A DNA stretch of 64,000 bases from an uncultured Bacilli bacterium (GCA_910589375.1 CAJUTK010000002.1:195133-259132); one strand, 5' to 3'; numbered from the stretch's first letter, positions 8,041-59,832 are shown. Made by a program: numbers and translations. Notes: generated by a model not told the origin, from the sequence alone.

Positions 8041-8115
8041 ACTACTACTTTAGTAGTTTTTTTCTTGCTTTCCTTTTAGAAAATGTGCTATAGTAATAAA
8101 TATAGGAGCATGACT

Positions 8116-11100
8116 ATGGCAGAAAAATTAAAGAAAGTTAATTTTGAAAAGTTATTAAAGCAATGGGGAGCTAACTATGCTTACCTTCTTTCAAATGAAA
8201 TGAATGCAGAAATAATAGTTGAAATGAAGTCCTCACTGCCTGATATTTCAAAATATCCGTTATCGGAAGAGTGGGAAAAAGAAGCAAAGAAAATTACATT
8301 ACAGTTAATCAAGAATAAAATTTGTGAGAAAATATCTGAGAATATCGACTTTTTAGATATCTATTTTTCAAAAAAGTGGGTTAAGAATAAAACAGATGAT
8401 GAAAACTTAAAAGCTTTTGCAACTTTTTTACAGAAAATAGGTTATTCACTCAGTATTGATGAGTGTATTAGTCTATTTGAAAAATATCCAACTTTTTTAA
8501 ATATAGTCAAAACGATTGTTAATTGTAAAACGAAAAAAATTTTGTTAGATAAATTAGAGGATATTCCGGATTATCAACTACTTTCTTCTATTATAGGAGC
8601 TTATTTAACATATGCTAATATAGAAATAGACTTAGATGAGGATTTAGAGGATGAGTATAAAATAGATGGAAATGTTGATTTTTTCAAACTAGATCCGATA
8701 AAACAATATTTGTATGAAATAGGTCAGGTTCCTCTTTTAAGCATTGCTGAGGAAAAAGAACTGTTTACTTTATTAAAGTCAACTAATAGTGATAAAGTAA
8801 GACATAGAATTTCAGAGGCTAACCTTAGACTGGTAGTTAATATTGCGAAACGTTATGTAGGAAGAGGAATGCTCTTTCTAGATTTAATTCAAGAAGGAAA
8901 TTTAGGTCTCATGAAAGCGATTGATAAGTTTGAGGTAGAAAAAGGATATAAGTTTTCAACTTACGCGACTTGGTGGATTCGTCAGGCGATTACAAGAGCA
9001 ATTGCTGATCAAGCTCGTACAATTCGTATACCTGTTCATATGGTTGAACGAATTAACAAAGTAGTTCAAGCCGAAAGAAGACTTACAATGGAATTAGGGC
9101 GCGAGCCAAAATATGAGGAATTAGCTGAGGAAGTAGGTTTTACAGTATCTCAAATTCGGGATATTAAAGAAAATTATTTGGAACCAGTAAGTCTTCAAAC
9201 TTTAATTGGCGATGAAGATGATTCGGAACTAGAGGATTTTGTAGCAGCAGAAGGCGATGATTATGCAGTAGTTAGTAATAATGAGTTGCATGATAGACTG
9301 ATGGATGTATTAAGTAGAATTCCGGAAAGGGAAGCACAAGTTTTAATTCTTCGCTTTGGTGTAGAAGATGGTAGAACCAGAACCTTAGAAGAAGTTGGAA
9401 AAAAGTTTGGTGTTACTAGGGAAAGAATTAGGCAAATAGAAGCAAAAGCATTAAGAAGATTATTTAAAAGGAGAGATGCGAAAGCTTTAAAAGTGTTTAT
9501 AGGCTTAGAAGAAGAACCAGTAGTGCCTTTACCATTAGAAAATAATCATAAACCAGGAGCTGTTTCTAAAGGAAAGCCTAGATTAACAACTTCTCCAAGA
9601 TACGTGCCATCAAACATATCATCAAAACAGGCATTAGAACCAAAGCCTATACAGGAACCATTAGAGGCGGTAAAGAATTTATTCTATTATTTAAATAATT
9701 ATTCACCTAAATTAGTAGTAAAAGAACTTCGTACATTAGACCAATATTGTCAAGAAGTATTGGTAAAAATGTTTGGAAAAAACTTTGATATGAATTTGCA
9801 GGAAAGAGCAGATGAAAATGATGTTTATTTATTTCAAAAATTTATTCTTCCAGAGTTAAAGGAAAAGTTAATGATACCTTCTGTAAAAGCAGCTCAAAGA
9901 GATACAGTTGCTGCAACTCCAATAAAAAAAGAAGGAGAAGCACTAAAAAGTTTGGAAGGTAGAATCGTAACACCAGCAGAGATTTCTGCTGCCACTTCTT
10001 TAGAAATACATGAACGTGAAGAAGTAATAGATACAAATACTATACCAGAGGAAGAAGCAATTCCAAAATTAAAACCACAAGAACAAATAGGGGGAAAAGA
10101 GGAGGAAATTATGAAAGAACAAAATAATTCAGCAAAAGGAAAAAGAAGGGATTTAACAACACCATATACTTGTTTTGAAAAAGATTCTAAGGATTGGGTT
10201 GACTATGCATTATATACATTAAATCAAGAAGATCAAGAACTTTGCGCACTTCGTTGGGGAAGTGAAAAAAGACCATTTACGAAATCAGAGCAGAATAGAT
10301 TTATTCGTACTGTTTTAGGAAGAATGGAAAAAACATTAGAAAAATTACGCTCTGGTGAAATTACTATAGTAGGTTCTTACACAGTATCTGCACAAGGAGA
10401 TGAGAAGAAAGAAGAATCTCAACCTCCTATACCAGAACAAAGTGGAAATAAAGGGGAAGAACTTGCTCCTAAGAAGGAAAGAAGAAAGAGAAGAGATTTA
10501 ACAACTGTATATACATGTTTTAATGGAGAACCAAAGGAAACAGTTGACTTTGCGATTTCTCTTTTAACTCCAGAAGAAAAAGCTACATTAGATATACGTT
10601 GGGGAGAAAATAGTAGACCTTTCGCTTCTACTAGAGAGAAAAATAAATTTTTCCAAGTAGTATTACCAAAATTAGAAGGTTATGTAGCAGATATTAGAGA
10701 AGGAAGAATAACAGTTGATGAAAGATTCCCTGATGAAGTGATTTCTCCTAGCACAGCTCCTTTAGTAGGTAAGCAAGTAGCTGTAGATGATGTTGCTCTT
10801 TCTGGATCAACGCATCCTTATCAATATACCGAAGGTGATACTTTCAGTGCAATGCCAGTATTGTCAGAAGGGTTTACAAAAGAAGATTATGAAGCTTTAC
10901 GTGCTTATATTGCAAGGCCTGAATATCAAGATGCAGTAAAAACATTACCACTTGAGGATTGTGTTGTAGCAGCTCTTTCATTAACAATGGTAGGAAATAA
11001 AAAAGTATCATTTGGTGTTTTGGCAGAACTTCTTGGTATGGATGAAAAAGAAGTAGAACAAATTGCAAAAAGAGGTTTATTTGCATTAAAAGAAAAATTT

Positions 11101-11160
11101 GATAATAGTGTAGATAAAGCAGCAGAACCATATGTTAAAGAACTTGGGGGAATGCAATAA
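8116..11160 (+). CDS. sigA: primary-type sigma-70 factor (SigA-like core, residues about 200-470) with a long N-terminal region and a 550 aa C-terminal extension
   Basis: The region 2 to 4 sequence is near-identical to B. subtilis SigA: [30 protein letters not shown] and [36 protein letters not shown]. The extension contains two internal repeats, RRDLTT(P/V)YTCF...(L/I)RWG(S/E)...RPF. AGGAG RBS lies 7 nt before the ATG at 8116. Confidence 0.85.
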
Positions 11161-12053
11161 TGGGAAAGAAAAAGAAGGAAGAAAAAGTAGAAAGATTTCC
11201 TATTGATGCAGAAGTTGCTAATTTCGAGTCTAAGTATACTAAAATTATGCCTTTTATAGATGCTTCTTTAGTAAGAAGATTATATGAGTCATCTATTCCA
11301 AATGATATTAGGGAAAACGGTGTTAGTTGGAATATTACTGCTAATTTTACAGTAGAAAAGAAATTCTTTTTAGCGATTAAAGAATTAATTTTAGAAGGAG
11401 ATATTGATTTAGAGATTGCTATTATAGATCAGTTTATGTCTATCGGCCGAATGCTAATTAAAAAGTTAGGCTATACAGGAGATGATATTGATAATAAAGT
11501 AGAGACAGCAATTACTTTAGCAATTGAAAATTATCCAGGACAGGATGGTTTTAAAAGTACTTTATTAAAAGAATTGAAAGTTATTGTAAAAGGTAAAAAA
11601 GAAGAGTCTTTATCTCATATACCAACAACTTCAATAGAAACAGAGAAAAATGTTCCTTCCTTAGAAGGAATAGAATCAGAAAGCTTTGAAGTAAGAGAAC
11701 CTTTAGAGCAAGCAGAGCCTTCCAACCAGACATTGCAAACCCAAGAAATAGTACTTCCAGCTGATGGTAAGTTAAGAGTACCTACTTCTTTGGATCAATT
11801 ACTTTTCAATATTGATATATTAAGAGTTTCCCCATTAGAAGATCAAGACTATATTAAATTTTTAACGCTAAAATATGGATATTATGGTGAACAATTCTAT
11901 TCTTTAGGTGAAATTAGTGAAATTCTATCTTTACCAAAAGAAAAGGTAAGAGAATATTATTTACAATCTTTACAATTCGTGAAAGACTGGTTTGGATTAC
12001 AATTAGAACGTTATTATACTTATTTAAAAAAGAACACAAAAGAGAATGATTAA
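11160..12053 (+). CDS. hypothetical protein with a sigma region-4-like C-terminus, translationally coupled to the sigma gene
   Basis: Its ATG overlaps the sigA stop (TAATG). The C-terminal LKYGYYGEQFYSLGEISEILSLPKEKVREYYLQSLQF resembles the sigma-70 region 4 HTH. Confidence 0.55.
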   Translation: MGKKKKEEKVERFPIDAEVANFESKYTKIMPFIDASLVRRLYESSIPNDIRENGVSWNITANFTVEKKFFLAIKELILEGDIDLEIAIIDQFMSIGRMLIKKLGYTGDDIDNKVETAITLAIENYPGQDGFKSTLLKELKVIVKGKKEESLSHIPTTSIETEKNVPSLEGIESESFEVREPLEQAEPSNQTLQTQEIVLPADGKLRVPTSLDQLLFNIDILRVSPLEDQDYIKFLTLKYGYYGEQFYSLGEISEILSLPKEKVREYYLQSLQFVKDWFGLQLERYYTYLKKNTKEND

Positions 12054-12065
12054 TCATTCTCTTTT
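12038..12065. terminator. perfect 13 bp inverted repeat (AAAAGAGAATGAT-TA-ATCATTCTCTTTT), bidirectional terminator spanning both convergent stop codons
   Basis: Seen directly in the sequence. The + gene's TAA (12051-12053) and the - gene's TAA (12050-12052) both lie in the palindrome centre. Confidence 0.6.
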
Positions 12066-14029
12066 ATTGTAGGAATTAAATCTTCTAAATTTTCTTGTTT
12101 ATAAGTAGGCTCTGTTCCTTTTATGTAATAGAACATAGTAGCATTTTTATCTTTTTCTTTCGCTATATTACCAGAAATAGGGTTGACTAAGGTACCAACT
12201 ACGTTTTCAGGAATAGAATACCAGTTAACTTCTTTATCCTTTAAATAATTTTCGGCAATATCTCTCCACATATATCGCAAATCTTTTCCATTTTTTACTT
12301 CTGTAGGAGTACTATCATCATTTCCACTCCAAATTCCTATTACAATATTAGCGTTATACCCAAATATTAAGTGATCATTATCAGTAGTTCCTGTTTTAAT
12401 AGCGTACTTATGAGTTAAAGTAGAGGTAATATCATAGCAGGTAGGATAATTGTAATCAATAAAATGGTAGTTATAAGTACTTGTTAATGCCTCATTTAAT
12501 ATATAAGTAAGACTACTATTTAAAGTAGGTTCTTTAGTATTTTTATTTTCATATAGTATATTTCCTTCCATGTCTTCTACTTTAGCAATTAGTTTTCCTT
12601 CTACTCGATATCCTAAGTTAGCAAAAGTTGCATAGGCCTGCACCATTTCAAAAAGAGTGATTTCTCCACTTCCAAGAGCAAGAGAAGGGACTGCCTGCAA
12701 ATCAGATTTAATACCTAATCTATTTGCCATTTCTACTAACGTTTTCTCACCTAGAAATAAGTGTGTTTTAACAGCATAAATATTATCACTGTAGGCAAGG
12801 GCAGCAGCCATTGTAATAGCTTTTCCGCCATATTTATTATTATAATTAGAAGGACTATAAGTTTTATTTTCAGAGAAAACGAAGGTTGTTTTCTCACTTG
12901 TAAAAGTAGTAGATTCTGTAAATCCATTTTCAAGAGCAGCATAATATAGAAATGGTTTCATAGTAGAACCGACTTGTCTTTTAGCATTGATAGCACGATT
13001 ATACTGGCTCGTTGAGTAGTTTCTTCCTCCAGTAAGAGCAATTACATGACCATTTTCTGGATCCATCATAATAGCAGATAACTGTATATCATCATCTTTA
13101 ATATTATCATCCATAGCTTTTTCTAAAATTGTTTGAGCATTTAAATCTAAGTATGTATATACTTTAAGACCTCCTGTTTCTAAAAAGGTCTTTGGTATTT
13201 CTTTTAAACTCTTTAATTCAGTCATAACAGCATCTTGATAATACATCAATGTCTTTAATTCATTTTCTTCCATTGTTCCATAGTAAGTAAGGCTACAGTT
13301 AATAGCATCATCCTTTTCTTCTTCTGAAATCATACTCTCTCGTACCATACTAGAAAGAACTAACGCTTGTCTTTCTTTTGCTTTTTCTTCATTTACAAGA
13401 GGGGAGTAATGAGAAGGAGATTTTGGAATACCTACTAAAATAGACGCTTCTGCAAGTGTTAAATCCTTAGCATGTTTATGAAAATAGTATTTACTAGCAT
13501 TTTCAATTCCATAAATTCCTCCATAATTGATAGTATTTAGATAAGCTTCCAAAATTTCATCTTTAGAATATTGGGTTTCAAGCTGTATGGTAAGCCATGC
13601 TTCTTTTATTTTTCGCTCCCACGTTTTATCGAATGTTAAAAAGAGATTTTTAGATAATTGTTGACTGATAGTAGAGGCACCTTGTTTTTTAGAGCCACTT
13701 TTTAAATTGATATAAAGGGACTTAGCAATTCTTAAATAGTCAAAGCCGCTATGTTTATAAAAATTTTTATCTTCTATTGCAATAGTAGCATCAATTACAA
13801 AAGGAGAGATATCATCTAATGATACCCAAGTGTCACTTAATCCTTCAACTAAATCACCATTTATATCATAAAAATAGAACTCATTAGCATTTTCTATTAC
13901 TAATTTAGTTCCATACTTTGCATAAAAATAAAGACCAAAGTAAAAAATAAAACCGAGGCCAATTATAAAAAGACTGATTTTGCATAGTCTTTTCCACCAT
14001 TTTTTCTTTCGTTTCATACCATCACTCAA
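12050..14029 (-). CDS. class A penicillin-binding protein (PBP1A-type transglycosylase/transpeptidase)
   Basis: N-terminal TM anchor. GT51 motifs (IEDKNFYKHSGFD, RIAKS). Transpeptidase STMKPF (SxxK). 659 aa. Confidence 0.85.
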   Translation of the reverse strand: MSDGMKRKKKWWKRLCKISLFIIGLGFIFYFGLYFYAKYGTKLVIENANEFYFYDINGDLVEGLSDTWVSLDDISPFVIDATIAIEDKNFYKHSGFDYLRIAKSLYINLKSGSKKQGASTISQQLSKNLFLTFDKTWERKIKEAWLTIQLETQYSKDEILEAYLNTINYGGIYGIENASKYYFHKHAKDLTLAEASILVGIPKSPSHYSPLVNEEKAKERQALVLSSMVRESMISEEEKDDAINCSLTYYGTMEENELKTLMYYQDAVMTELKSLKEIPKTFLETGGLKVYTYLDLNAQTILEKAMDDNIKDDDIQLSAIMMDPENGHVIALTGGRNYSTSQYNRAINAKRQVGSTMKPFLYYAALENGFTESTTFTSEKTTFVFSENKTYSPSNYNNKYGGKAITMAAALAYSDNIYAVKTHLFLGEKTLVEMANRLGIKSDLQAVPSLALGSGEITLFEMVQAYATFANLGYRVEGKLIAKVEDMEGNILYENKNTKEPTLNSSLTYILNEALTSTYNYHFIDYNYPTCYDITSTLTHKYAIKTGTTDNDHLIFGYNANIVIGIWSGNDDSTPTEVKNGKDLRYMWRDIAENYLKDKEVNWYSIPENVVGTLVNPISGNIAKEKDKNATMFYYIKGTEPTYKQENLEDLIPTIKEND

Positions 14030-23180: not shown

Positions 23181-23199
23181 TAAATTTGTTTTTGAAAAA

Positions 23200-23410
23200 A
23201 AGCGATGATGAAAGAGTAGTAATAAACGGGCGGATTAAAGAGAGTTCATGGGTGGTGTGAATGAACATGAAGTGTTTATGAATTCACTTTCTAGCATTAT
23301 AAAAGAAAATTTATAACGGTGACGCGTTATAGTCTTAGAGATTCAAATTATGAATAAATTAAGGTGGTACCACGGCTTTTCGTCCTTATCTGGTATCGCT
23401 TTTTTTATGG
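23200..23410 (+). promoter_or_regulatory. T-box leader (probably Phe-specific) with terminator
   Basis: Conserved T-box sequence AATTAAGGTGGTACCACGG at 23357-23375. GGUACCA/UGGUAUC terminator stem with T-run at 23364-23408. AGAGA (GA-motif) near 23238. Possible UUC specifier in GAATTCACTTTCTAGC. Confidence 0.65.
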
Positions 23411-42872: not shown

Positions 42873-44573
42873 ATGTACGAAGAAAGAAGAGAAAGTTTTT
42901 CAGTTAGAGATTTAATTTTACAAGTATTATTTATTGTACTATTTGTCTTTATCCTAATTTTAATATTCCCAACTAAGGGATATATGAAAAAGTATATTGA
43001 TAAGAATGGTAAGGACACAGGTACTAATACTACAGTTGTCGAATCAAACTTTGATGTAGACCAATTAGCAGCATTATACAATCAAATTTTTGCTAATAAT
43101 GTTGTAGCTATGAAAGAAGCAGCTATTGGATATTACACTACAGATAGATTACCTGCTAAAGTAGGTGAATCTGATAAGATGACTTTACAACAAATGTATG
43201 ATAAGCATTTAGTGTTAAAGTTAACAGATAAAAATGGAAATGCATGTGATGTAACAAAATCTTATGTATCTGTAACAAAATATGAAAATGAATACCAAAT
43301 GAAGGTAAACTTAAGTTGTGGTGGAGAAGAAGATTATATCATCGTATACTTAGGATGCTATGATTATTGTGATGCAACAGGTGTTTGTGAAAAACAAACT
43401 CCAACAAAACCAACTACACCATCTAAACCAAGTAAACCAACAACAAATACAACAGTAAATAAAGTTACAAATATTACAAATAATTATTATTATGAAAATT
43501 GTGATTGTGAAAAACCAAAATATTACTGTTCAATTGTAAATGGTAAATATTATGATGCAAGTGGAAATGAAGTTAACAAAGAAGCTTATGAAAAAGCTTG
43601 TAATGAAGAAAAAAGATATTATTGTTCAATTGTAAATGGTAAATATTATGACGATAAAGGTCAAGTAGTAAGCAAAGCTGAATATGATAAAGCTTGTTCA
43701 CAACCAACTAAAAAATACATTTGTGAATATAAGAAAGTAACAAATGGTGAGTGGGGACCATATGGACCTTGGTCAGAATGGACTACTACTAAACTTACTG
43801 AAAATAATAATACACAAGTAGATACAAAAACAGAACAAGTTGTAACTGGTTATACTACTAAGAAAGTACAAACAGGTACAAAAACAGAAACTTATATATC
43901 AAACTATACAACTTCTAAGTATGTATCAGGATACACAACAGAAAAATATGTATCAGGTCATACTACAGAAAAATATATTTCAGGATATACAACGCAAAAA
44001 GTACAAACAGGTACTAAAAAAGTACAAATAGGAACTACAACAAAGACAACTACTAAAAAAGTTGCTGCAGGTACTAAAACCACTTATGTATCTTCTGGTT
44101 CAGGAACAACAATTCCAAATAATACAAGTGAATATACTTATGTAAAAACTGGTTCAACTCAATCTCAAAGTTGTTCAAGTTGTGCTACTGTAACTGTATA
44201 TACATGGGATGTATATAAACTTACAACAGTTTATAAAACAGAACAAGTAACAGAAACAGTACCAGTATATTCTGTACAACCAGTATATGAAACAAAACAA
44301 GTTCCAGTATACTCAACTAGACAAGTTCCAGTATACTCAACTAGACAAGTTCCAGTATACTCAACTAAGAAAACTCCAGTATATGCTACTAGACAAGTTC
44401 CAGTATACGATGAAGTAAAAACACCAGTTTATGGAACTCAAACTTACTACCGTTCAAGAACAAGAACTTATAGTGGAGGAAGTACAGATACAAAATGGAG
44501 TACATGTGATCCAGTTGATACTTCTTTAACAAGTCAAGGATATTATCAAACTGGTAATGTAAAGGAAGCATAA
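42873..44573 (+). CDS. membrane-anchored surface protein with Cys-rich module, proline/threonine linker and three families of tandem repeats
   Basis: N-terminal signal-anchor. Two YYCSIVNGKYYD...KAC repeats. Four YTT(E/Q)KY(V/I)SG repeats. At least six (R/K)QVPVYST repeats, three of them perfect 24 bp DNA copies. Promoter TTGACA-17-TAGGAT at 42812. Terminator at 44576-44600. Confidence 0.7.
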   Translation: MYEERRESFSVRDLILQVLFIVLFVFILILIFPTKGYMKKYIDKNGKDTGTNTTVVESNFDVDQLAALYNQIFANNVVAMKEAAIGYYTTDRLPAKVGESDKMTLQQMYDKHLVLKLTDKNGNACDVTKSYVSVTKYENEYQMKVNLSCGGEEDYIIVYLGCYDYCDATGVCEKQTPTKPTTPSKPSKPTTNTTVNKVTNITNNYYYENCDCEKPKYYCSIVNGKYYDASGNEVNKEAYEKACNEEKRYYCSIVNGKYYDDKGQVVSKAEYDKACSQPTKKYICEYKKVTNGEWGPYGPWSEWTTTKLTENNNTQVDTKTEQVVTGYTTKKVQTGTKTETYISNYTTSKYVSGYTTEKYVSGHTTEKYISGYTTQKVQTGTKKVQIGTTTKTTTKKVAAGTKTTYVSSGSGTTIPNNTSEYTYVKTGSTQSQSCSSCATVTVYTWDVYKLTTVYKTEQVTETVPVYSVQPVYETKQVPVYSTRQVPVYSTRQVPVYSTKKTPVYATRQVPVYDEVKTPVYGTQTYYRSRTRTYSGGSTDTKWSTCDPVDTSLTSQGYYQTGNVKEA

Positions 44574-51154: not shown

Positions 51155-52864
51155 ATGAAAATCCATTTTATTGAAAAATTAAAAAACAGAAAGTTTAAAC
51201 TTCAAAAAGCAACTAGAAAAATTTCACTTGCTTTAGCATCTATCACACTTGTTGGTGCTTTAACTGGTTGTGGAGCTAAACAAAATACAGAAGTTCCAGT
51301 TACTAATGATAATATAAATCCAACTTATAATTCAACTTTAGATCAAGGCGCTCAAGCAGAAGAAAGTCAAGAAGGAGTTGCTACTCCAAATGCTGAGGAA
51401 AGCTTAGAAGCTCAAATTGCTGCATTACAACAAAGACTTGATGAATTAGAAAATGCAAATCCATATAGTGCTGTTGCCGCAAATGATACTTATACACAAG
51501 ATAAGTGGGATGAATTTGTTACAGAGGCTAAAAAAGTATTAGCTGGAAAAATCAATAATGAAAATCAAGAAGGAATTGAAGCTGCATTATTATTATTCAA
51601 TATTGATTATTTAGATGATAATGCAAAACAAGTTTTACTTACTCATTATGAACAAGGTCAAGATGTAGAAGCTGAATTAAATAAATTATATGCAGTATTA
51701 TCACAAGTTCGTGAATACAATACGGAAATTGATTCTGCAGATAATTATTTATCTTATGCAGATGTTATGTTAGATGAACAAGATAAAGCTATTATTTCTG
51801 TTTTAGACGGATATGCTAAAGAAGTAATTACTTTAAGAAGTGACTTAACTGAAGCAAATGTAAATAGAATTAAAGAAATTTTTGATATCATATATAAGTT
51901 CTCAAATGGTACAGGTACTATTAAAGTAACTATTAATGGAGCAGAACAAGATATCGCTCAAATTCATTTATCACATGGTGGAATCTTTGCTGCAGAGAAT
52001 ATTGCACAAGATATTTCTGTATTAAGTAGAAATATTGTTTCACAAGAAGATAGAGAAAAATTAGATAGTGAATTACGTTCTAAAGATACATTAGCAAAAA
52101 CTCAAGAAAAAATTAATATTTATACAGCAATGGCTTCTGTAAATGCTAAAGGTGTAAATGCCGAAGCTCAAGAAAAAGTTGTTAATCAATATAATTATCA
52201 ATTAGGTGTTATTGCAAAAGAATTAGAAGTAATGGGAGTGACAGCAGAAGAAGCTCAAGCTTTATTTACTGTTACTAATATAGATTATTTTATGGATAGT
52301 ACAAATAGTCAACATGCTTTTGATGTGATTTATGAAAATGGTTTTGATATTAATGCTGCTTTTACTAACGCAGAAGAGGCAGTTAGAAAAATTCAAGCTT
52401 ATGATGATACACAAGAGCAAGTATATGATATGGCACGTTTGGTAATTGCTAGCGAAGCAGATGCTATTTCATTAAGAGCATTTACTCAAACAGCACATGG
52501 TGTTACTTCATCTGATGCAACAGTTGTTGCTAATGCTGCACATATTGTAAAAGGTTATACACAATTCTCAAGTGAAGCAACAGTTGATTACCAAACAAAG
52601 GATGCTAATGGTGATGTTGTTAATCATTCTATTGATAAAAATGGTTTAGGAAAAGGTGCATACCAAGTTGTTAACTGGTATACTTACTATTCTGTTTCTA
52701 ATCATAAGAGTGCATATGGTACTATTGCAGATTCTTTAATTCAATTAGTAGATGGATCTCAAGTAGGACTTAATCCATATGAGCAAATAGTATTAGAGGT
52801 AGAAGATTACTGCGCAGAAAATAATATTGTAGTATATAACTATGAAGTAGGAAATACAAAATAA
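51155..52864 (+). CDS. lipoprotein (secreted, alpha-helical, Ala/Glu/Gln-rich)
   Basis: Signal peptide with lipobox LTGC (LVGALTGCGAK). 569 aa. Terminator AATGCCttttGGCATT with T-run at 52866-52892. Confidence 0.65.
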   Translation: MKIHFIEKLKNRKFKLQKATRKISLALASITLVGALTGCGAKQNTEVPVTNDNINPTYNSTLDQGAQAEESQEGVATPNAEESLEAQIAALQQRLDELENANPYSAVAANDTYTQDKWDEFVTEAKKVLAGKINNENQEGIEAALLLFNIDYLDDNAKQVLLTHYEQGQDVEAELNKLYAVLSQVREYNTEIDSADNYLSYADVMLDEQDKAIISVLDGYAKEVITLRSDLTEANVNRIKEIFDIIYKFSNGTGTIKVTINGAEQDIAQIHLSHGGIFAAENIAQDISVLSRNIVSQEDREKLDSELRSKDTLAKTQEKINIYTAMASVNAKGVNAEAQEKVVNQYNYQLGVIAKELEVMGVTAEEAQALFTVTNIDYFMDSTNSQHAFDVIYENGFDINAAFTNAEEAVRKIQAYDDTQEQVYDMARLVIASEADAISLRAFTQTAHGVTSSDATVVANAAHIVKGYTQFSSEATVDYQTKDANGDVVNHSIDKNGLGKGAYQVVNWYTYYSVSNHKSAYGTIADSLIQLVDGSQVGLNPYEQIVLEVEDYCAENNIVVYNYEVGNTK

Positions 52865-56835: not shown

Positions 56836-58536
56836 ATGTTTGCAAATTTAGAATTGTTTTTACAAGAAAAAGAGGTATATAGGCAAAAGGTAGAAGAGAT
56901 AAAGGCTTCTGCTCAAAATCCAGAAGAGTTATCAAAACTATTAATAGAGGCAGAGGAACATTTCAAAGGAGAAGTACGTAAGTATCTTACTTCAGCTATT
57001 ACTGTAATTAATACGAATTTTGGTTGCCAATATTCAATTTATAAAGTAGGAAAAGACTTTGATGTTAATTTTCAAGTGGTAGAGACAAATGTTAGAAAAA
57101 CAAGATCTGAAGTAATCGCAGAAATGGAAGAATTTAAAAAACAAGCTGTTGGTATGGATTTAACTAATGAGCAAATTACGAAAATTAATTTGGCTATGGA
57201 AGTATTACTTACTTATAGTGATGATGCGACAGATAAAGTAGATGAGAATAAAGAAGCTTTTTTAAAGGAAGCTCAAGTAAAAGCCACTAGTATTATTGAA
57301 GCTCCAACAAGAGAAAATAATGCTTTTGAACCGGCTCCTAGTCAAGAGCCAAATTTTAATCCATATGCTAATCAGCCAATAGAAGTAGATAATGGCTTTA
57401 AAAATCCAGAATATGAGAAAAAGACTTTAGTTGATCCATTTGCAAGTATTTATGGAGGAGCGAATGTTTCTCCTAATGAAATACCAGAAGCTACTCCTGA
57501 TTTCGGTGTTCCTAATCCTCCAACTAATATGAATATGAATAATTCTTTAGGAGATGCTATGTCTATCTTTGGGCCAGGAATTACAACTAGTACTTCTAAT
57601 CAAAGTAATACTATGAGTAATCCACAACAGAATGTATCTCAAATTCCTGTAAACAATAATTATAATAATGGGTTAAATCCAATGAGTAATAATGTTAATG
57701 CTAATGTTATGCCTACTAATGCAGTGAATGCTCCCAATAATTTTAACAATGTTACTCCAACTGGGGCGATAGCAAACGCAGCACCAGAGAAAACTAATGA
57801 AACTGAAGATTCTTTAGTATTAGTAGATGAGTTAAATGTTCCAAAGGAAAGTGCTTGCATTGTATCAAAGCTATTAAAAGGTATTCTTCGATTACCAATT
57901 ACGACTTTACTTTTCTTAGGAATAATTTTGCTAATATTCTGGGGAATGAACAAGGCTAATTGGATGGGAGAGATAGAAGAACTATTAGGGGATTATTTGA
58001 TTTATGCAGAATTAGCATTATCTCTTTTCATTGCTTTAATAGCATCCTCAACAGTAATAGATTCAATTGCTTCTAAGACAAAGTATATTAGTAAACATGC
58101 CATGGCTTCTCTTACTATTTTTTCTGGAGTTACCTATGGACTTACTTTATTGATGCCATATTTAATGGAAAATGTTTTAGTAGATAAGCTAGATGCAGAT
58201 ATTATTTTTGAAGTAGCTATTTACTTTGCTTATTATTTAGCTTTATCCTTCTTTGTTGGAACGTTTATGTGGTTGTTGTCTTTTATGCGCACTAAGAAAG
58301 AATATTTAAAGAAAAGACTCAATATTTTTGAAATTCTTGGAGCTTTAGCAAATATTTATACGCTAATTATTCCAGCTGTCATAGTAGGATGCTCTTGGTG
58401 CCAAGTAACCGTTGTTGGAGAAAAAGTAGCTTTTTTATACGATTATGAAAATTTTCAATGGATTGTTATGATTGCAAGTTTTGTATTAGGTCTTATTATG
58501 ATTTTATTTAGTAAATTGGAAGAGAAAAAGTTATAG
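56836..58536 (+). CDS. membrane protein with soluble N-domain, N/Q/P-rich low-complexity linker and C-terminal multi-TM domain
   Basis: 566 aa. Linker NNNYNNGLNPMSNNVNANV. At least 5 predicted TM helices C-terminally. Confidence 0.5.
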   Translation: MFANLELFLQEKEVYRQKVEEIKASAQNPEELSKLLIEAEEHFKGEVRKYLTSAITVINTNFGCQYSIYKVGKDFDVNFQVVETNVRKTRSEVIAEMEEFKKQAVGMDLTNEQITKINLAMEVLLTYSDDATDKVDENKEAFLKEAQVKATSIIEAPTRENNAFEPAPSQEPNFNPYANQPIEVDNGFKNPEYEKKTLVDPFASIYGGANVSPNEIPEATPDFGVPNPPTNMNMNNSLGDAMSIFGPGITTSTSNQSNTMSNPQQNVSQIPVNNNYNNGLNPMSNNVNANVMPTNAVNAPNNFNNVTPTGAIANAAPEKTNETEDSLVLVDELNVPKESACIVSKLLKGILRLPITTLLFLGIILLIFWGMNKANWMGEIEELLGDYLIYAELALSLFIALIASSTVIDSIASKTKYISKHAMASLTIFSGVTYGLTLLMPYLMENVLVDKLDADIIFEVAIYFAYYLALSFFVGTFMWLLSFMRTKKEYLKKRLNIFEILGALANIYTLIIPAVIVGCSWCQVTVVGEKVAFLYDYENFQWIVMIASFVLGLIMILFSKLEEKKL

Positions 58537-58545
58537 GGGGATTGT

Positions 58546-59832
58546 ATGATTGTTGTTATTACCAATAAATTAAAAGAGATTATTGATAGTAGTAGACTTA
58601 AAGAAGCAAATTGTAAGTATGCAGTTGGCTTTTATACAGTAAATGATTGTATACAATCATTATCTTCTTTAGATATAGATTATTTAGTTATAGATATTAC
58701 TGCTTTTAAGGATGCTTTTGAAATTAGTTCTTGGAAAAGAGTGAAAGATTTTATTGATCCTTCTAAAACTGTTATTTTGTTAGAAGAGGCAAAATCTTAT
58801 TCTAATGTTGGTTTTCTATCTATGCTAATTACAATGGGTTTCTACAATTTTACTAAAACAGGTGAAGGAATAATAAGGCTAATGGAAAGGCCTAATTCTT
58901 ATCAAGAGGTGGCAAAGTATCAAAAGATGGCAATGAATTTAGAAGATAGAAAAGAAGAAGAGGAAGAGCGCTTTAATGATTATCAAAGGAAACTAGGAGA
59001 AAACCAAGATATGATGCGAGATTACCTAGAAAGATATCAAAAAGGTGAAGTTTCTTTTAAAAGAAAAAACGATGTTTTTAAGTATCAATTAAAAGTAGGT
59101 TTATTAGCACTCCCAATTTTGACTATTGCTAGTGTATTTTTCATTTATCTATTTCAAATTTTTATTTCTAATATGGTTCCATTAGAAGATAGCGTCGGAG
59201 AATATCTATATACAGAACTAGCCCATACTGGTTTTACTCCATTAACAATTATAGGAATTTTAATTATTACGGTTTTCTTTTCTATTTACTATACTTTCTT
59301 GAATGCAAAAATTAAAAGAATGCAGATGACAAGATCAAAGTTTATTATTATTCCATTTGCTATTTTCTGTGTACTTGTATTTGGAGAATATTATTTAGTT
59401 GGTGTTTTAGAAAAATTCTATGAGTTTATAAAGATTATTCCAATAGATGATAAGATGTATCTTTGCCAGGATTTATACTGGCTAAGTAGGTATGTAGCAA
59501 CAGCAGCAATATTCTTATTCTATATTAGTACTTTCATTGATAATTCAAGAACTTTAAAGTTTGAAAAGGATTTAGGTCAGAAATTAACTTGGTTAGAAAA
59601 ATTATGGGTAATTGATATGATTTTATTGCTAATGATTCCTCTTGCTTGTCAGTTATCTTTAGCACTTCCAGAAAGTAGTTCATTATCTAGCTTTTTTAGT
59701 AGTATTTCTGATAAGTCTTTGATAATGATGGTAATTGCTGGTATTGAATTTATTTTAACAATATTAATTTTATTGCAACCTAAGTTTGTAAAAGAAAAAG
59801 AATATACAATATTAAAAGAAGAAGATTTATAG
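58546..59832 (+). CDS. membrane protein (cytoplasmic N-domain about 190 aa plus multi-TM C-domain)
   Basis: GGGGGG RBS. 428 aa. Confidence 0.5.
   Translation: MIVVITNKLKEIIDSSRLKEANCKYAVGFYTVNDCIQSLSSLDIDYLVIDITAFKDAFEISSWKRVKDFIDPSKTVILLEEAKSYSNVGFLSMLITMGFYNFTKTGEGIIRLMERPNSYQEVAKYQKMAMNLEDRKEEEEERFNDYQRKLGENQDMMRDYLERYQKGEVSFKRKNDVFKYQLKVGLLALPILTIASVFFIYLFQIFISNMVPLEDSVGEYLYTELAHTGFTPLTIIGILIITVFFSIYYTFLNAKIKRMQMTRSKFIIIPFAIFCVLVFGEYYLVGVLEKFYEFIKIIPIDDKMYLCQDLYWLSRYVATAAIFLFYISTFIDNSRTLKFEKDLGQKLTWLEKLWVIDMILLLMIPLACQLSLALPESSSLSSFFSSISDKSLIMMVIAGIEFILTILILLQPKFVKEKEYTILKEEDL

Follow-up and report, generated by a model that had tools for sequence, protein, structure and literature searches.

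Few bacterial proteins are as conserved and as well studied as primary sigma factors; their C-terminus normally lies a few residues past region 4.2, and in Bacilli the gene order dnaG-sigA is typical. C-terminal extensions are described from group 4, where the ECF41, ECF42, CorE-type, and OrbS proteins carry a group-conserved extension that is thought to act in cis on sigma activity (PMC3426412, PMC9023288, PMC8103513). In the alphaproteobacterial general stress response, PhyR has degenerate sigma-2- and sigma-4-like domains that have lost promoter recognition and are used for protein-protein interaction (PMC4551977, PMC4598750). The subject of our analysis is a two-gene locus on a 64-kb window (the whole stretch analysed, 64,000 nucleotides, GCA_910589375.1 CAJUTK010000002.1:195133-259132, GC content ca. 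30%) from an uncultured Bacilli bacterium. Its first gene encodes a sigma factor of 1014 amino acids (aa), in which a SigA-type core is followed by a tail of ca. 550 aa; this tail consists of four folded modules, A, B1, B2, and C, set on disordered, fast-evolving linkers, and both module types (B and C) appear to descend from sigma domain 4. The second gene encodes a partner that looks like a pseudo-sigma. The features of both genes are the following (window coordinates; HTH, helix-turn-helix; pI, isoelectric point):

8116..11160, + strand: long sigma factor gene, 1014 aa plus stop
8116..8685, + strand: N-terminal domain, residues 1-190, acidic (pI 4.8), occupying the position of region 1.1
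8686..9510, + strand: group-1 sigma core, residues 191-465 (r1.2 8692-8763; r2 8815-9021; r3 9046-9252; r4 9307-9462)
9664..9873, + strand: module A, residues 517-586, divergent B-type and apparently sigma-4-derived, with gap-free conservation
10141..10365, + strand: module B1, residues 676-750, preceded by the basic arm KGKRRDL
10480..10719, + strand: module B2, residues 789-868, with an invariant basic arm before it; predicted helical bundle (one short and three longer helices) without HTH
10837..11157, + strand: module C, residues 908-1014, predicted complete sigma-4-like fold (4.1 and HTH) with an additional helix at its N-terminus, a long one at its C-terminus, and an acidic 'recognition' helix
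11158..11162, + strand: TAATG stop/start overlap of the sigma and partner genes, probable translational coupling
11160..12053, + strand: partner gene, 297 aa; N-domain ca. 14-145 (nt 11199-11594), disordered linker 146-196, C-domain 198-297 (nt 11751-12050)

With Firmicutes SigA/RpoD (B. subtilis SigA, PDB 7ckq_F) the window sigma shares regions 1.2, 2, 3, and 4 in order, identical -10 and -35 recognition segments, and an alignment that extends to the end of SigA. It differs in having no recognisable region 1.1 but an acidic N-domain of 190 aa, in its 550-aa tail, in standing outside the dnaG-sigA order, and in the apparently co-translated pseudo-sigma partner downstream. The fusion of a sigma to a conserved C-terminal extension is common to the ECF sigmas and to our locus, and short sigma-2/sigma-4 cores with B/C tails also occur in the tailed family; the known ECF extensions, however, are SnoaL-like, TPR, or Cys-rich sensor domains on group-4 sigmas (PMC3426412, PMC9023288, PMC8103513), whereas the extension here is made of copies of sigma domain 4, in variable tandem number, on a group-1-type core. 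The window sigma does not have the group-4 architecture, as regions 1.2 and 3 are present and the extension appears to be sigma-4-derived. The mimicry logic of PhyR would fit both the pseudo-sigma partner and module C, but the window proteins have neither a receiver domain nor a NepR/EcfG context and come from another phylum; the Pfam model PhyR_sigma-like has no match in the window sigma or partner, and the single match observed, on the genuine region 4 of the short-core relative P0195, fell under threshold. The MZA anti-phage system has as its sigma MzaA (NCBIfam NF041931, PADLOC PDLC02203), likewise a long sigma-70-family protein with a group-1-like C-terminal core, which the window core matches; the extra sequence of MzaA is N-terminal, though, the match scores 312 bits where the cutoff is 800 and is confined to the sigma core that both have, and no Mza genes lie nearby. 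For the MG284/MPN403 family (NCBIfam NF045770, Mycoplasma, function unknown) the likeness is to a B-module array, P0161, whose residues 923-947 come near the model cutoff (34.5 against 37.3 bits, E = 1e-8, C-domain), and this suggests B-like modules in Mollicutes; the match is sub-threshold, the window tail has none, and we found no literature on the function of the family. Our literature searches returned the extended ECF sigmas and PhyR mimicry, and nothing on a group-1-type sigma with a sigma-4-derived tail. No member of the tailed family has a name in the sources consulted, and the tail is recognised by none of the curated models; the combination of a sigma-70-family protein bearing such a modular tail with a pseudo-sigma partner, set in a large unannotated family, is previously undescribed.

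Pfam places regions 1.2, 2, 3, and 4 in order on residues 193-449 of the sigma (4.5e-7, 1.6e-23, 5e-21, and 2.4e-16) and nothing on residues 470-1014. The nearest PDB sequence to the core is B. subtilis SigA (E = 7.7e-96, SigA residues 99-370 of 371), and in that alignment the recognition segments of regions 2.4 and 4.2 are identical; since the alignment reaches residue 370 of SigA, the window protein runs on for about 550 residues past the SigA end. The top NCBIfam model is the Firmicutes RpoD equivalog PRK09210, with a score of 384.7 bits that stays under the cutoff of 572 because only model positions 98-369 are matched. Judged by its sequence, the core is of the group-1 (SigA/RpoD) type. 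An earlier note on this DNA had seen a near-canonical SigA at residues ca. 200-470, in a reading frame continuing for another 550 residues, and both statements stand: the core occupies residues 191-465, and the tail is in frame and conserved across homologs. The N-domain (residues 1-190) has zero Pfam matches at E <= 1, Sigma70_r1_1 (PF03979) included, and this model is absent as well from the Pfam lists of the tailed sigmas P0001-P0009. In hhalign the N-domain has no relationship to any of the tail modules or to the r2 and r4 profiles. It is kept in the tailed group-1-like sigmas, with a majority-residue fraction of 0.74. By eye, the N-termini of two relatives, P0036 and P0116, resemble it.

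The tail modules are related to one another and, by several lines of comparison, to region 4. The two internal repeats of about 85 aa that the earlier note had singled out are B1 and B2, which share 43% identity over 77 aa (BLASTP, E = 7e-23) and whose family sub-alignments match at 99.9% (hhalign, E = 5e-32). The third related segment it had seen upstream is module A (residues ca. 517-586), of which the deep profile matches B at 99.5% (E = 1e-22) and region 4 at 82%. As to the claimed similarity of the repeats to sigma region 4, shallow profiles of 9 sequences were too weak for the link (E = 0.002-0.018), and B and C copies were therefore harvested from HMMER matches to build deep profiles (307 B, 107 C, and 57 region-4 copies). 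With these, B matches region 4 at 95.8% (E = 8e-9, 51 columns) and C at 97.8% (E = 1e-12, 57 columns, spanning 4.1 and the whole HTH), so that the likeness noted earlier is upheld. Pfam's own region-4 models score above threshold on coreless arrays of B modules (P0147 with Sigma70_r4, E = 7e-33; P0161 with Sigma70_r4_2, E = 1e-27), each repeat covering just the first ca. 20-37 positions of the models, and the NCBIfam sigma70-ECF superfamily model also passes, at 78-88 bits against a cutoff of 42.9. Module C of the window has no Pfam match; the region-4 hidden Markov model (HMM) matches the C module of one relative (4.5e-7), and stand-alone B+C proteins match Sigma70_r4 weakly.

We modelled B2 together with C by AlphaFold (AF2) from an alignment of 20 sequences. 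In the model, module B (confidence score pLDDT 86-95; helices at model residues 13-16, 22-30, 34-44, and 54-76) consists of a short helix, two helices equivalent to those of region 4.1, and a single helix of 23 residues (54-76) that replaces H3-turn-H4. Module C (pLDDT 72-91) has one extra helix and then four in sigma-4 order (150-157, 161-170, 181-188, and 192-224), the last one extended. The top 50 Foldseek matches of this model in the PDB are all sigma factors, and isolated sigma-4 domains superpose on C with probability 0.99-1.00 (1ku3, template-modelling (TM) score 0.74 and root-mean-square deviation 2.5 A; 4g6d_A, TM 0.69). When the tail and partner profiles were compared with PDB sequences, all matches were weak and spurious (TopBP1 BRCT, E = 0.055; RNA polymerase I subunit rpa14, E = 0.2, the latter via low-complexity linkers), and a BFVD fold search gave just insignificant ones, to sigma and Sigma70_r4 proteins. 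Profiles and models agree in pointing to sigma domain 4 as the ancestor of both B and C, with B predicted to retain the region-4.1 helices and to have swapped the HTH for one long helix.

Neither module type looks like a reader of the -35 element, because B is without an HTH and the 'recognition' helix of C is acidic. The region 4.2 consensus of C is IEE.EV.EITKK.LL.YKE in place of TRERIRQIE: the basic recognition helix (R-E-R-x-R-Q) for -35 contact is not present, and acidic residues stand where the -35-reading arginines would be. The HTH of C has a pI of 8.1, against 11.8 for the genuine region-4 HTH of the same protein, and the pI of the whole module is 4.6. Module A (pI 5.3) and the linkers are acidic too. 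B1 and B2 have a pI of ca. 9, with conserved basic positions at both ends of the deep B consensus, and each follows an invariant K/R-rich arm (KGKRRDL before B1, KERRKRRDL before B2). The earlier note had overlooked this loss of -35-reading features, as it had three other points: module C (908-1014), of all the sigma-4 copies the most complete; the sigma-2-like character of the partner's N-domain; and the membership of the tail in a large modular family.

The partner gene had been noticed for overlapping the sigma stop codon and for a region-4-like end, both rightly: the overlap is TAATG at 11158-11162, and the C-terminal 100 residues match region 4 at 95% (hhalign, E = 4e-8). They match module C at 96.9% (E = 1e-10). 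The N-domain matches sigma region 2 at 57% (E = 1e-4) over 2.1-2.2, and six residues are deleted at FSTYAT, the very place of region 2.3 (FSTYATWW). No Pfam domain is found in the partner itself or in its 22 detectable homologs. The AF2 model has two helical domains with a disordered linker between them, and its top 50 Foldseek matches in the PDB are sigma factors only, aligned over the whole length (best E = 4e-3, probability 0.90). Because of the sigma-2-like N-domain lacking region 2.3, the sigma-4-like C-domain, and the sigma-only structural matches, we read the partner as a likely pseudo-sigma, combining a sigma-2-like domain without region 2.3 and a C-type sigma-4-like domain. Such a protein would plausibly dock like a sigma yet be without the determinants of -10 melting and recognition. 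Overlapping sigma and partner frames are also found in L013-L015, L018, and L019, and in every genome checked in which one or the other gene could be found, seven in all, the pair is adjacent with overlapping frames.

The long reading frame is well conserved. An identical protein of 1014 aa occurs on at least 24 contigs (36 index blocks of the collection) from independent samples, among them metagenome-assembled genomes at NCBI and assemblies from ENA, JGI, and Logan. Nine further cluster representatives, of 52-99% identity, span 93-100% of its length. The four modules show a majority-residue fraction of 0.77-0.80 and no gaps, being about as conserved as the N-domain, and the linkers are variable (0.33-0.44, with 24-41% gaps). 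The ratio of nonsynonymous to synonymous substitution rates (dN/dS) against an 88%-identical homolog is 0-0.21 in the modules and 0.4-0.75 in the linkers, against a 57%-identical homolog 0.26-0.33 and about 1, and overall 0-0.33 and 0.4-1.3, respectively; the modules are evidently under purifying selection. The long sigma and its partner appear to form a real operon of two genes, inherited vertically in an uncultured lineage of low-GC Bacilli.

The tail is part of a large modular family, to judge from a HMMER search of 1.84 billion cluster representatives with a tail profile, in which 387 representatives reached E <= 1e-3 and 135 of them E <= 1e-10; many were matched repeatedly, in as many as 15 distinct stretches. 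We mapped module HMMs on the best 150. Among these the core is group-1-like (r2-r3-r4) in 47, short, i.e. r2(-r4), in 32, and absent in 65; the number of B modules is 1-12 in most of them and zero in a few, and in 129 a C-type module stands at the end. A tblastn search with a stand-alone B+C protein found nothing in phage genomes and one marginal match in plasmids, on the sigma-4 part of a Deinococcus sigma. Some members depart from the common plan. P0036 (1035 aa) and P0116 (1171 aa) carry in their tails nearly canonical extra copies of region 4 (REYRVLELRFGLKDG...; two in P0036, one clear in P0116; r4 vs tail, E = 1e-7) besides B-like modules and a long coiled C-terminus, and may be an evolutionary intermediate between true region 4 and the B/C modules. 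In P0239 (1057 aa) six A-type modules stand N-terminal to the sigma core and a second region-4 copy follows the first; the modules are therefore not confined to C-terminal tails. Short tailed sigmas (sigma-2/sigma-4 + B + C, ca. 460 aa) at L011 7817-11221 and L016 5817-9217 share a small cassette of an overlapping 63-aa open reading frame (ORF), the sigma, a GNAT acetyltransferase, and a 393-aa protein of unknown function, which adjoins secE-nusG in one genome and a WXG100/EssC (type VII secretion) cluster in another. That these short sigmas are SigH orthologs, as the position of P0296 upstream of secE-nusG had suggested, was dropped, since other members lie in unrelated contexts and their top NCBIfam matches are SigK/SigE-like.

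From the architecture, the sigma-4 homology, the loss of DNA-reading features, the conservation of the partner, and the size of the family, with a docking or regulatory tail inferred, we obtain what is overall the best explanation of the locus and, in our judgement, probably the right one. The more specific proposal, that the tail works as a flexible and multivalent array of sigma-4 mimics, docking on some partner and thereby regulating or tethering the sigma, we advance tentatively, as a possibility short of an expectation. The modules would then be protein-docking copies of sigma-4 rather than extra promoter readers, and the tail an appendage that could bind whatever recognises a sigma-4-like surface: the co-translated pseudo-sigma, the beta-flap of RNA polymerase, or a sigma-4-binding regulator. 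Docking might adjust how available or how active the sigma is, or might hold partners at the holoenzyme, by a logic analogous to that of the ECF C-terminal extensions and of PhyR sigma mimicry; the earlier note had suggested that the extra modules may serve autoregulation or tethering. The locus joins a SigA-type core, bearing a selected modular tail of what appear to be degenerate copies of its own domain 4, to a putative pseudo-sigma. Should the tail indeed regulate or tether the holoenzyme, housekeeping transcription in gut Bacilli with reduced genomes would have a further, new level of control, and nature would offer an instance of mimicry of domain 4. New domain families could also be defined for the B module (sigma-4 without HTH) and for the C module (sigma-4 with an acidic recognition helix), which would at once improve the annotation of many metagenomic proteins.

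A number of points weigh against this account. The docking targets are candidates that we infer; the window's own tail has no match in Pfam, NCBIfam, PHROGs, or PADLOC, so far as B is concerned kinship with sigma-4 rests on profile-profile comparison and on relatives, and the sigma-2 likeness of the partner N-domain (57%, E = 1e-4) is supported only moderately. Whole-model Foldseek E-values are weak (0.004-0.8 over both models; 0.09 and above for B2+C), because each model is made of two domains joined by a disordered linker. The missing direct Pfam or NCBIfam match and the weak shallow profiles would also suit an unrelated helical repeat family whose likeness to region 4 (LRWG vs LRFG) is a coincidence, but the deep profiles at 95.8-97.8%, the region-4 models of Pfam passing on B-only arrays, and the sigma factors heading the structural matches largely refute this, and we hold it to be very improbable. 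Still less credence can be given to an assembly chimera or frameshift joining sigA to a downstream gene, which the earlier note had allowed for: we found no support for it, and the identical ORF on independent contigs, the frame kept in homologs of 52-99% identity, the purifying selection on the modules, and the 47 other group-1-like cores with tails refute it. Chimeric duplications do seem to exist among unrelated database sigmas; in P0010 and P0015, which do not belong to the tailed family, the whole r1.2-r4 core is duplicated internally, probably by assembly. A further point on the adverse side is that the basic B1 and B2 with their K/R-rich arms fit nucleic-acid binding as well as protein docking, and may have such a role. 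The tail could be a DNA tether, its arms and B bundles binding AT-rich DNA upstream of promoters in the manner of the C-terminal domain of the RNA polymerase alpha subunit on UP elements and raising promoter affinity in a genome of 30% GC with few activators. The invariance of both arms, the pI of B1 and B2 and the basic ends of the B consensus speak for it, and a copy number varying from 1 to 12 would suit multivalent DNA contact; B has no HTH, however, A, C with its 'recognition' helix, and the linkers are acidic, and the pseudo-sigma would be left without a role, so that we regard the DNA tether as unlikely.

The remaining adverse points concern the role of the sigma and not the mechanism of its tail. 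In all relatives the sigma is flanked by thrS-DUF308 upstream and partner-PBP downstream, and not by dnaG, of which none lies within the 64-kb window; with the unmatched region 1.1 and the PRK09210 score of 384.7 under 572, this weakens the case for primary-sigma status. The gene might instead be a specialised group-2-like paralog, with a canonical sigA of ca. 370 aa beside dnaG elsewhere in the genome and the tail and partner regulating an accessory regulon. The absence of Sigma70_r1_1 matches from every tailed sigma, the gene's distance from dnaG, the RpoD equivalog score, and the occurrence of the same tail on short alternative sigmas in varied contexts would agree with such a paralog. Set against it are the recognition segments identical to SigA, the 47 independent group-1-like cores with tails, and a strictly conserved housekeeping neighbourhood: the pair occupies the slot dnaI-x-thrS-DUF308-sigma-partner-PBP(-)-x-argS-x-prfA, which is kept also in genomes whose partner protein has no more than 37-50% identity and whose sigma measures 845-1041 aa. 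There is also no other ORF with sigma-2, sigma-4, B, or C domains in the window, the long sigma being its sole sigma-70-family ORF, and the longest contigs with the gene reach only 0.5-0.7 Mb, which suggests small genomes. On balance a paralog seems to us somewhat unlikely. A contig profile scan of species-representative genomes found one locus with this tail, that of the uncultured Bacilli bacterium.

The sigma gene may have a second product, from a candidate internal start:

10100..10113, + strand: AGGAGG 10100-10105, 5-nt spacer, and the invariant ATG of Met666 (10111-10113), 12 codons before B1

This AGGAGG is the only one in the 3-kb sigma gene. The same arrangement (AGGAGG-5 nt-ATG) is found in P0002 (L001) and in the 57%-identical P0008 (L018), in the latter despite differing flanking residues, and P0009 (L019) has AAGGAG-9 nt-ATG; among relatives farther away the pattern is not consistent. 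With the Glu-rich peptide and the codon usage of the gene taken into account, the chance of an internal Shine-Dalgarno and ATG is ca. 9% per lineage, and the case for a start at Met666, which would yield a free B1-B2-C protein of 349 aa, is suggestive only. Such a product, if made, would resemble the stand-alone B(n)-C proteins of other genomes. One may go further and imagine a circuit wholly of sigma-derived parts, in which the tailed sigma, free B1-B2-C from Met666, and the pseudo-sigma compete, on RNA polymerase or among themselves, for the sites at which sigma-4 and sigma-2 dock, as a mimicry-based partner switch on the housekeeping sigma, with the same system of 1-12 B modules and C at work in hundreds of uncultured Bacilli lineages; this we consider quite unlikely in its full form.

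At the borders of the operon we find two further features:

8065..8108, + strand: likely promoter and ribosome-binding site of the sigma operon (TTGCTT 8065-8070; extended -10 TGcTATAGT 8086-8094; AGGAG Shine-Dalgarno 8104-8108)
12036..12067, strand not assigned: 14-bp hairpin with T-runs at the convergent ends of the partner and PBP genes, likely a bidirectional terminator closing the operon

The longest reading frame of the sigma gene is 8083-11160 (1025 codons). The true start, as read from the sequence, is evidently the ATG at 8116 and not that at 8083, because AGGAG stands 7 nt upstream, MAEK opens every homolog, and the ATG at 8083 falls inside the extended -10 element TGcTATAGT. Promoter and ribosome-binding site were assigned by direct reading and are likely; a promoter consensus scan did not list the TTGCTT/TGcTATAGT candidate upstream of the sigma gene. 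Right after the stop of the DUF308 gene and just upstream of TGcTATAGT, at 8041-8064, an AT-rich hairpin (ACTACTAC...GTAGT) is followed by a T-run. As hairpin and T-run precede the promoter-like element, they suggest that the sigma-partner operon is transcribed separately.

Elsewhere in the window, a T-box leader (23196-23390, 114.5 bits) lies upstream of a 123-aa ORF and pheS-pheT. Four ORFs at 42873-44573, 51155-52864, 56836-58536, and 58546-59832 (566, 569, 566, and 428 aa) have no Pfam match on record and no B, C, or sigma modules; three of these are nearly equal in length and might be paralogs. In the relative with L018 (504-2259, GCA_011262095.1), thrS, which lies upstream of the sigma locus, is annotated as a pair of ORFs (164 and 425 aa), and this split suggests a frameshift or sequencing error in that assembly.

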